Origin: Polynucleobacter sp. | GTDB taxonomy: Bacteria > Pseudomonadota > Gammaproteobacteria > Burkholderiales > Burkholderiaceae | Assembly (NCBI GenBank): GCA_016462905.1 | Contig: JAEMSI010000002.1 | Coordinates: 41,848-105,847 of the forward strand | Direction of reading: 5' to 3' | DNA: 64,000 bases | Part shown: in pieces, positions 29,324 through 32,359 of the stretch | How positions within the stretch are numbered: position 1 is the stretch's first letter | Layout: each line of letters starts with the position of its first letter | Made by a program: the position numbers and the translations under genes | Notes under the pieces: model-generated | The model's input: only the letters and a program-made list of their open reading frames with translations | Database searches by the model: none | Told to the model about the DNA's origin: nothing

Positions 29324-29359
29324 AATTGAGGGTTACAACGATTGCAATAGGAGAGTGGC

Positions 29360-30568
29360 TTGGAAATTGGCTTTGATTTGACTCAGTTTCAGGACAATAT
29401 GTTGAACTGGCTTGGTAACGGTTTGCTAGATTGGTCTTGGTGGCAAATTGCCCTTTTTACTCTGCTTGTGACTCACATCACGATTGCTGCCGTAACTATC
29501 TTTTTGCATCGCTGCCAGGCACACCGTGCACTCGATCTACATTCGATTCCGTCGCATTTTTTCCGACTTTGGTTGTGGTTAACCACCGGAATGGTGACTA
29601 AACAATGGGCGGCTGTCCATCGAAAGCATCATGCTAAATGCGAAACCAAGGAAGATCCGCATAGCCCGCAAATTTTAGGGATCAATGAAGTTCTTTTACG
29701 CGGCGCCGAGTTATACAAAGATGAGGCAGCCAAACAAGACACGCTTGATAAATTTGGTCATGGAACTCCTGACGATTGGATTGAAAATCATATTTATTCC
29801 AAATACAGTTGGCAAGGCGTTGGTTTAATGCTAATTATCGACGTCATTTTATTTGGCGCTATTGGTGCGACTGTATGGGCTATTCAAATGCTTTGGATTC
29901 CAATAACCGCAGCCGGTGTCATCAACGGGATTGGGCACTTTTGGGGATACCGTAATTTTGATTGCGAGGATGCCTCTAAAAATATTGTTCCATGGGGCAT
30001 CTTGATTGGCGGGGAAGAATTGCATAACAACCATCACACTTACGCAACCAGTGCCAAGTTATCTAATAAATGGTATGAGTTTGATATTGGCTGGTTTTAT
30101 ATTCGCTGCTTAAGCGCATTGGGACTGGCTACGATTAAGAAAGTTCCGCCTAAGCCAGTATTGGCAGATGTTCGTCCAGCCGATCAAGACACCCTCGAAG
30201 CCATCATTGCCAATCGCTATGAAGTGATGGCTCGCTACAGCAAGACGCTCCAACGTTTTTATGCCACTGAATTACATCATCTACAAGAGATTGCAAGCAA
30301 TCTTAAAGATACTCGTAATTGGCTATCAAAAGACGAATCCCGTTTAAGTGATGATGAGAAAAATCAGTTAGAGCAATTAATGAAAAACAATTCTCAATTG
30401 CGCAAGATGATTGAAATGCGCCGTGAATTGCATTTGATTTGGAGCCGCTCCACGGCCTCACAGGAGCAATTAGTCGATCAACTGCGCGCTTGGTGTCATC
30501 GTGCCGAGGAGTCTGGTAATGCAATATTGCGCGACTTTTCTTTACGCTTGCGCCGCTATTCTAATTAA
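29360..30568 (+). CDS. Membrane acyl-CoA (delta-9-type) fatty-acid desaturase with an extra C-terminal helical domain
   Basis: Three His boxes: HRCQAH, HRKHH, HNNHH. AGGAG SD before a TTG start. Confidence 0.92.
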   Translation: MEIGFDLTQFQDNMLNWLGNGLLDWSWWQIALFTLLVTHITIAAVTIFLHRCQAHRALDLHSIPSHFFRLWLWLTTGMVTKQWAAVHRKHHAKCETKEDPHSPQILGINEVLLRGAELYKDEAAKQDTLDKFGHGTPDDWIENHIYSKYSWQGVGLMLIIDVILFGAIGATVWAIQMLWIPITAAGVINGIGHFWGYRNFDCEDASKNIVPWGILIGGEELHNNHHTYATSAKLSNKWYEFDIGWFYIRCLSALGLATIKKVPPKPVLADVRPADQDTLEAIIANRYEVMARYSKTLQRFYATELHHLQEIASNLKDTRNWLSKDESRLSDDEKNQLEQLMKNNSQLRKMIEMRRELHLIWSRSTASQEQLVDQLRAWCHRAEESGNAILRDFSLRLRRYSN

Positions 30569-30583
30569 CCCATTCGAATCGAT

Positions 30584-30615
30584 ATAAAAAAACCCGCTTG
30601 ATGCGGGTTTTTTAT
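30584..30615. terminator. Bidirectional terminator between the desaturase and rpmG
   Basis: AAAAAACCCGC-ttgat-GCGGGTTTTTT. Confidence 0.9.
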
Positions 30616-30811: not shown

Positions 30812-31045
30812 TTAAACTTGGCCGCGAGCGCGAAGGTCGGCGAGAACAGAATCAATTCCATTCTTGTCGATAAGGCGCAAGCCAGCATTGGTTAAACGCA
30901 GGCTTACCCAGCGATTCTCAGATTCAACCCAGAAACGACGATTTTGCAGATTAGGCAAAAAGCGACGCTTAGTTTTGTTATTTGCATGGGAAACATTATT
31001 GCCAACCATTGGCTTTTTCCCAGTGACTTGGCAAACTTTTGCCAT
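30812..31045 (-). CDS. rpmB: 50S ribosomal protein L28
   Basis: [34 protein letters not shown]; AAGGAG SD. Confidence 0.99.
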
Positions 31046-31074
31046 GACACTCTCCTTAATTACGAAAAACAATG

Positions 31075-31174: not shown

Positions 31175-31876
31175 TCATTTTCGGCTTTCCTGGTGTTGTT
31201 GGGGCATGAGACCCGCATCGGCAAATGAAAAAAATCCCCCAGCAGAAACAATGCAGTGATCCAATAGGTGAATATCTACCAGACTCAAAGCCTTGGATAG
31301 GGTATCGGTGATGTTTTCATCATCCTTGCTGGGTAGCGGGCTACCACTAGGGTGGTTATGAGCCACAATCAAGGCGCTAGCATTTCGAGCCAAGGACTCT
31401 TTAATGATTTCCCTTGGATATACGGCAGTATGGGCAATCGAGCCCCTAAAAATAGTCTGACACTCAATCAGGCGGTTACAAGAGTCGAGGTAGAGACAAA
31501 CAAAGACTTCATGGGGTAGATGGGCTATTTTGGCCTGCAATAAGTCCTTTGCTTGGCTTGAGGAGGTCAAAACAGCACTTCGAATTAAGTTTTTTTCTAA
31601 GCTGCGCTTAACTAATTCATAGGCTGCCTTAATCTGCGACCATTTTGAAAGCCCAATACCTTGGCAGGCACTAAGCTCTTTCATTTCGCAAGCAAGTAAT
31701 TGAGGAAGGCTGCCAAATTGGGAGAGTAAATCCTCGGCAAGCCGAATCGCATTCTTTCCTTTAATCCCAACCCTTAAAAAGATCGCCAAGAGTTCTGCAT
31801 CGCTGAGCGCCTCTGCCCCTAATAACTTCAGTTTTTCACGGGGCTGTTGGTTTTTTGGCCATTGGGAAATCGGCAG
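31175..31876 (-). CDS. radC: RadC/JAB-domain (UPF0758) protein; start codon unclear
   Basis: QPREKL..LGAEALSDAELLAIFLR and JAB motif E...HNHPSG..PSKDD. Homology begins near LPISQWP (CTG at 31876); the ORF-track 5' extension overlaps the FKBP gene. Confidence 0.85.
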   Translation of the reverse strand: MPISQWPKNQQPREKLKLLGAEALSDAELLAIFLRVGIKGKNAIRLAEDLLSQFGSLPQLLACEMKELSACQGIGLSKWSQIKAAYELVKRSLEKNLIRSAVLTSSSQAKDLLQAKIAHLPHEVFVCLYLDSCNRLIECQTIFRGSIAHTAVYPREIIKESLARNASALIVAHNHPSGSPLPSKDDENITDTLSKALSLVDIHLLDHCIVSAGGFFSFADAGLMPQQHQESRK

Positions 31877-31912
31877 TTGGGTAGCATTCTTAGCTCTCGC
31901 TACAATATTGGA

Positions 31913-32359
31913 ATGACTACTTCTCAGGTTTTTCCGAATTCGTATTTGACCCTCAACTACAGGATCGTCCTGCCGAACGGGGAGGACTATATCAATACTT
32001 TTGTCGATGGTGCCGCTACTATTTTGATGGGATCTGGACAATTTGCGCCTTGTTTTGAAAAAGTGTTAATTGGTCTTGCTAAAGGTCAGCGCAAAAGCGC
32101 TGTGATTCGACCCGAAGAAGCATTTGGTCTTCATAAACAGGAATTAATCCAATTTGTATCGATGGCAACTCTGTTGGCTAATACCGATGAGGTTCCAGAG
32201 TTTGCTCCTGGTGATATGGTCGAATTTAATGCACCCAGCGGGGCTCAATACGCCGGTATTCTGCAATCGATTAATGAAGAAGGGGCTTGGTTTGACTTTA
32301 ATCATCCGCTAGCCGGTAAAGAGTTAATGTTTGAAGCAGAAATCGTAGCCATCCTTTAA
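31913..32359 (+). CDS. FKBP-type peptidyl-prolyl isomerase (SlpA/FkpB-like)
   Basis: LTLNYRI, GSGQF, PEEAFG and [14 protein letters not shown]; directly upstream of ispH; ATG at 31913. Confidence 0.9.

Follow-up and report, generated by a model that had tools for sequence, protein, structure and literature searches.

The window analysed here, a stretch of 64,000 nucleotides of Polynucleobacter DNA, carries a desA gene that lies within housekeeping genes, with rsmB and rpmB as its neighbours; the GC content of desA is uniform throughout, with no shift. The coordinates of the gene and of its features are listed in Table 1. The start of desA is ambiguous: the TTG codon is preceded, 5–6 nt upstream, by a good GGAGA, whereas public records begin the protein at the ATG of Met14. 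The N-terminal ~13 residues show no conservation among orthologues.

The first-pass annotation of this locus had proposed that the desaturase encoded by desA ends in a domain resembling the helical insertion of ISL3 transposases. The C-terminal residues that it quoted are the real end of the 402-aa open reading frame, and the region that it singled out, 30170–30568, corresponds to residues 271–402 plus the stop codon. A strong hairpin terminator just past the desA stop codon shows that the gene product does end with the tail.

Table 1. Position of desA and of its sequence and protein features in the window
Feature	Position	Strand	Basis or remark
desA open reading frame, 402 aa	29360..30568	+	TTG start; open reading frame list and NF049918 match
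Alternative start ATG (Met14)	29399	+	389-aa product; start in ESM Atlas record
Shine-Dalgarno-like AGGAGA	29349..29354	+	Upstream of TTG start; direct sequence reading
SCD1-like membrane di-iron desaturase domain, residues 1–273	29360..30178	+	Pfam, phmmer, Foldseek
His box 1, H50-x4-H55	29507..29524	+	H50 and H55 invariant in 33 DesA sequences
His box 2, H87-x2-H90-H91	29618..29632	+	H87, H90 and H91 invariant in 33 DesA sequences
N189-x3-H193, equivalent to SCD1 ligands N265/H269	29924..29938	+	Invariant in 33 DesA sequences; aligns with SCD1 NSAAH motif
His box 3, H222-N-N-H225-H226	30023..30037	+	Invariant columns in 33 DesA sequences
ISL3-related alpha-helical tail, residues 281–402	30200..30565	+	PF01610, NF049919, hhalign, AF2, Atlas; DesA-specific lead-in starts at D275
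Intrinsic-terminator-like hairpin, 11-bp stem and T-run	30587..30613	+	Begins 19 nt past desA stop

An inverted-repeat search at the locus found no terminal inverted repeats around desA, as the first-pass annotation had also noted. The sole inverted pair near the gene is 18 nt long (29349–29366 and 31039–31056) and encloses desA together with the start of rpmB. This pair exists because desA and rpmB, which are divergently placed on opposite strands, share the ribosome-binding site AGGAGAGTG, and a 9-mer of the desA Shine-Dalgarno sequence is also found upstream of rpmB on the opposite strand. The pair was considered as a candidate set of terminal inverted repeats and was rejected, since it represents two identical ribosome-binding sites. 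Further along the window, the listed open reading frames of a radC-like gene (31847–32359, + strand) and an FKBP/SlyD-like gene (31175–32041, − strand) overlap by ~200 nt; both were drawn from their first start codons, and the true starts probably lie further in.

The desaturase domain and the identity of the product

The product of desA matched NF049918 (NCBIfam equivalog, DesA family fatty acid desaturase) with 637.2 bits against a cut-off of 400, with residues 21–401 covering positions 1–385 of the 385-position profile, and the Pfam FA_desaturase match spanned residues 27–229. In a phmmer search of the PDB, residues 35–273 aligned with mouse and human SCD1 (4ymk and 4zyo), and SCD1 was the only match. 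A Foldseek search with the full-length AF2 model, which is of moderate quality (pLDDT 79, pTM 0.69), retrieved 6wf2, 4ymk and 4zyo with E values from 3.6e-5 (6wf2) to 2e-4 and a probability of 1.0. The full di-iron set of SCD1-type metal ligands was invariant across an alignment of 33 orthologues. The family score, the SCD1-like fold and the conserved ligands bear out the earlier reading of the protein as a delta-9-type desaturase.

Among the matches listed, the nearest named relatives were Polynucleobacter proteins with 76–77% identity. The identity to the Pseudomonas-type DesA (L037) was 49%, and the N-terminus of the latter agrees with the peptide published for the delta-9 desaturase of Pseudomonas sp. 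A3, an enzyme that is active upon expression in E. coli (PMC4975390). DesA of P. aeruginosa (PA0286) and FadA of P. fluorescens SBW25 (Pflu0184) show the same organization, in which a 4-TM SCD1-like desaturase with three His boxes is followed by an ISL3-like tail. Judged by these sequence comparisons, the desA product is a membrane delta-9 desaturase of the DesA family (Pseudomonas PA0286 type), and its putative activity, by orthology to Pseudomonas DesA, would be the oxygen-dependent delta-9 desaturation of phospholipid-bound acyl chains.

The protein was previously described as continuing for about 130 soluble residues beyond the third His box. An added tail of ~125–130 residues is indeed present, but ~45 of the residues that follow the box (227–273) are part of the SCD1-like fold and do not belong to the tail.

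Homology of the tail to ISL3 transposases

Residues 282–400 matched PF01610 (Pfam DDE_Tnp_ISL3), for which the gathering cut-off is 23 bits; the score was 40.6 bits when the whole protein was searched and 44.3 bits when only the tail was. The match is partial, covering positions 79–196 of the 240-position profile, which correspond to the non-catalytic middle of the domain. NF049919 (NCBIfam 'DesA/ISL3 alpha bundle tail domain') matched residues 281–401 with 123.7–127 bits against a cut-off of 30. The model for the ISL3 transposase family, NF033550, gave 32 bits over positions 206–323 of 370, which does not reach its cut-off of 180. One genuine ISL3 transposase (L019) matched DesA tails pairwise with up to 41 bits. 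When 33 DesA proteins were compared with 17 ISL3 transposases by hhalign, the probability was 98.9% and the E value 1.7e-17 over 121 columns, with DesA residues 281–402 paired with L019 residues 232–356. The proposed resemblance of the desaturase tail to ISL3 transposases is therefore upheld by Pfam, the curated model, the pairwise match and the profile–profile alignment, all of which agree.

Structure comparison led to the same result. With the ESM Atlas model of the window protein (pTM 0.86), the tail aligned with structures predicted for Bacillota, Actinomycetota and Pseudomonadota ISL3 transposases, with TM scores of 0.68–0.76 over 115–119 residues. A column-by-column comparison identified L322, L337, L357, W361, W378, A382, S385 and L397 as core positions shared by DesA and ISL3. 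ISL3 transposases such as those of ISPpu12, ISKpn25, ISEc53 and IS1251 (PF01610, NF033550) have the homologous helical segment, a hydrophobic/Trp core and a similar predicted fold. These data confirm the homology between the tail and a helical part of ISL3 transposases, and the profile and predicted-structure similarity supports the proposal that a transposase-derived or shared helical module is fused to a delta-9-type desaturase.

The tail region also attracted many weak coiled-coil-type Pfam matches (E 0.001–10), as would be expected if the likeness were due to chance or to the composition of helical, charged sequences. We give this explanation practically no credence. Against it stand the hhalign E value and its span, the fact that the curated NF049919 model covers both protein groups, the presence of W378, A382 and S385 in both, and the TM scores of 0.7 with predicted ISL3 models; by this profile, curated-model, core-residue and structure evidence, chance similarity is refuted.

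The alignment was then mapped onto the transposase. The invariant acidic residues in the ISL3 alignment are D160 (with E161), D215 and E372, the last within an L-E-G-x-N motif that is followed seven residues later by a Lys. In ISL3, the part that corresponds to the tail consists of a beta5-like I-V-Y-D-x-F-H-V stretch and the long helical insertion after it; this part comes after the second Asp of the DDE triad and ends 16 residues short of the Glu. All three acidic residues fall outside the aligned span, so that the DDE triad is absent from DesA. The earlier statement that the region of the catalytic Glu is missing holds for the same reason, as the alignment stops at L019 residue 356 and the invariant Glu is E372.

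A Pfam scan of DesA found neither the Zn-ribbon nor HTH_Tnp_ISL3 (PF14690, PF13542), whereas the real ISL3 proteins L019 and L053 have both, and L019 also has a full DDE domain. DesA has not retained the ISL3 invariants P229, A231, D236, F238, H239, R253 and K271 but has invariants of its own: D275, T278, R286, Y293, E304, C379, E383, G386 and Y400. Since the Zn-ribbon, the HTH, the catalytic residues and the invariants of the D-x-F-H stretch, Arg and Lys are missing, the tail is not a transposase. The desA gene of the window further differs from ISL3 transposase genes in being single-copy and in lacking terminal inverted repeats.

Distribution and history of the tail

The distribution of the tail was examined in 401 Pseudomonadota genomes, plus control genomes. 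In the 401 genomes, the tail model detected single-copy DesA genes at 100–150 bits and multicopy ISL3 transposases at 60–107 bits. An in-frame tail match within ~30–50 nt was found for every desaturase domain of at least 49% identity (53/53, with coordinates matched by hand). The next-best desaturases in the sample had at most 31% identity and were without the tail, and all DesA proteins found with the tail belonged to the GTDB class of the window. A scan of 185,579 species genomes yielded at least 598 desA loci; the best 80 of these were all from Burkholderiales and covered the query through residue 394–402. The fusion is ancient, and the tail is present in every orthologue examined.

Some genomes have a second, divergent DesA paralogue that retains the tail (L028 in G075:C10; L030 in G023:C1). 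The tail of L028 falls below Pfam PF01610 significance, yet it scores 85 bits with NF049919.

In maximum-likelihood trees of the shared segment, all DesA tails formed one clan (100/100) on a stem of 0.9–1.2 changes per site, and the splits inside the clan followed taxonomy. The clan was attached at the node where a proteobacterial ISL3 subgroup parts from the remaining ISL3 sequences, on a branch with support of 94/88. The adjoining subgroup is L019-like and includes a Klebsiella plasmid copy. The trees are unrooted and without an outgroup; midpoint rooting places the root on the long stem of the DesA clan. A single DesA clan beside one ISL3 subgroup, together with a tail in every orthologue, points to one old capture, and the data fit a single old capture followed by vertical descent.

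These results also bear on the possibility that the tail is the remnant of a recent ISL3 insertion, or an assembly or annotation artefact, fused accidentally to the desaturase in this genome. The Pfam name alone speaks for such an origin. Its probability is vanishingly small, given that the tail occurs in 53/53 orthologues and follows taxonomy, and that the locus shows uniform GC content, no terminal inverted repeats and a terminator past the stop codon. In addition, the window's own genome (1.84 Mb) contains no ISL3 element: desA is its single PF01610 match. The comparative data refute this reading.

A capture in the opposite direction, or common ancestry, was also considered, in which the bundle was first a DesA tail or a free domain and the ancestor of ISL3 gained it. 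An unrooted tree permits a root on the DesA stem, where the midpoint root indeed lies. Nevertheless, we consider this order of events improbable. ISL3 proteins with the segment occur in Bacillota, Actinomycetota, Thermodesulfobacteriota and Pseudomonadota, and among the control genomes NF049919 also found a match in Methanosarcina acetivorans, while in the genomes sampled the tailed DesA was limited to one class. Moreover, the aligned piece starts inside the catalytic core, at the beta5-like stretch, as would the boundary of a captured fragment rather than that of a free domain, and DesA groups with one proteobacterial ISL3 subgroup. Because of the wider range of ISL3, the boundary inside the catalytic core and the position of DesA nearest one subgroup, we infer from the unrooted tree that transfer from ISL3 to DesA is the favoured direction, and domestication from ISL3 is better supported than a shared ancestral fold.

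The most likely course of events is that an ISL3 segment was captured once, in the ancestor of the Burkholderiales/Pseudomonas-type DesA clade. The captured segment would then have lost everything that transposition requires, and would since have been inherited by vertical descent, with purifying selection maintaining it as an integral component of the desaturase. The case would be a clean and ancient bacterial example of a transposase sub-domain, not a whole transposase, being recruited by a housekeeping membrane enzyme.

A whole-library phmmer search with the tail returned mostly C-terminal gene fragments on short contigs and no clear new architecture. One of the hits, P0122 (L054:3–932), comes from a 1,340-bp contig of a JGI soil metagenome (3300010048) and encodes a 309-aa product in which the C-terminal part of an alpha-amylase (PF00128) is joined to a Burkholderia-like DesA tail. 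The two parts meet exactly at the equivalent of DesA residue 268, and this tail shares 47% identity with that of the window protein. Either the contig, the only one with this arrangement, was assembled as a chimera, or the tail has been put to use a second time independently.

Structure and candidate functions of the tail

Folded alone with AF2 (104 sequences), the tail formed a seven-helix bundle with a pLDDT of 84 and a pTM of 0.77. The predicted arrangement is that of a soluble seven-helix bundle of ~125 residues fused at the cytoplasmic C-terminus of DesA, and the whole-protein pTM of the Atlas model suggests that it is packed rigidly on the desaturase. Universal retention, invariant residues of its own and the high pTM imply that the tail is functional in the enzyme and rigidly attached to it. 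Overall, the gene very probably encodes a DesA desaturase with an ISL3-homologous seven-helix tail that was captured once, has been inherited vertically and works as part of the enzyme.

A Foldseek search of the PDB with the tail model gave no match at E ≤0.001. By sequence, no ISL3 transposase was found in the PDB, and profile A2 gave only an insignificant match to a Mutator/IS256 protein (6xg8, E 0.18). In a structural alignment of the tail model (30161–30565) with the PDB, the top match was the Hel2i domain of DRH-1 (8t5s; Z 8.0, rmsd 3.0 Å, 110 residues), and ~10 of the top 50 neighbours were Hel2i entries, including MDA5, RIG-I, LGP2 and Dicer; as Z ≤8 is in the noise range for helical bundles according to the aligner, these matches are a lead only. 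The Hel2i helical insertion domains, which belong to RIG-I-like and Dicer helicases and come out as the closest structures to the tail model, show no significant sequence similarity to it (E ~1). Insertion domains of the transposases Hermes and ISCth4 were not among the top 50 PDB neighbours.

Most orthologue tails are basic (median pI 9.6), with net charges that range from −1 to +12. The tail of the window protein differs in this respect from most tails, since it is nearly neutral, with a net charge of +1. Charge analysis across the orthologue tails gave no consistent signal of a docking surface, and the variable charge of the tails together with the near-neutral tail of the window protein does not favour a conserved electrostatic docking surface.

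Several functions of the tail can be envisaged; the first-pass annotation had suggested dimerisation, electron-donor docking or nucleic-acid binding. A cytoplasmic structural module on the desaturase, with a role in its folding or oligomerisation, is put forward tentatively as the leading candidate. It is possible, though doubtful, that the tail serves to dock a soluble redox partner, for example ferredoxin or flavodoxin. Since DesA-type enzymes work in E. coli (PMC4975390), any such partner would be generic, and no dedicated one is required. A role at the membrane surface or at lipid head groups appears unlikely, and nucleic-acid binding very unlikely.

The first-pass annotation described the tail as standing in place of a cytochrome b5 domain, which is an analogy with fungal enzymes. 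Fungal OLE1-type delta-9 desaturases carry a C-terminal cytochrome b5 domain. OLE1 and DesA are alike in that an SCD-type desaturase bears an extra soluble domain at its cytoplasmic C-terminus. Unlike the cytochrome b5 domain of OLE1, the DesA tail is all-helical, has no haem-binding motif and shows no similarity to it; a redox-related role by likeness to OLE1 would be speculation.

Nucleic-acid binding inherited from the transposase would imply that the tail keeps a Hel2i-like grip on duplexes and that DesA moonlights on DNA or RNA at the membrane. The Hel2i domains found as best structural neighbours and the mostly basic tails are in line with such an activity. It is nonetheless highly improbable, as the Z scores do not exceed the noise of helical bundles, Foldseek returned nothing at E <1, the ISL3 Zn-ribbon and HTH are missing, and the tail of the window protein has a net charge of only +1. 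There is equally little chance that the tail retains the ancestral activity of the ISL3 insertion domain, for example as a duplex grip of the Hel2i type or in binding a specific partner. If it did, the tail would physically link an enzyme of membrane fluidity with nucleic acid or a regulatory partner, and would represent the functional exaptation of a DDE-transposase sub-domain by a bacterial metabolic enzyme. The preferred reading, a captured segment that now works as part of the desaturase, concerns one third of a well-known enzyme, a part that all the examined orthologues have conserved.

The architecture of DesA with an ISL3-type tail is already known, both from a published diagram and from the NCBI-curated NF049919 model. 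In the diagram, Pflu0184 is drawn as FAD (11–246) followed by 'TNP', DDE_Tnp_ISL3 (261–389) (Farr and Rainey, 2016; bioRxiv 10.1101/091744). A literature search for studies of the tail or for a structure of the ISL3 insertion domain found only this diagram. The names given to these proteins are a matter for annotation: as the first-pass annotation had stated, they are mistaken for transposases, and tail fragments in Atlas clusters are still automatically named 'Transposase domain-containing protein'. One Polynucleobacter orthologue carries the name 'aminotransferase'.
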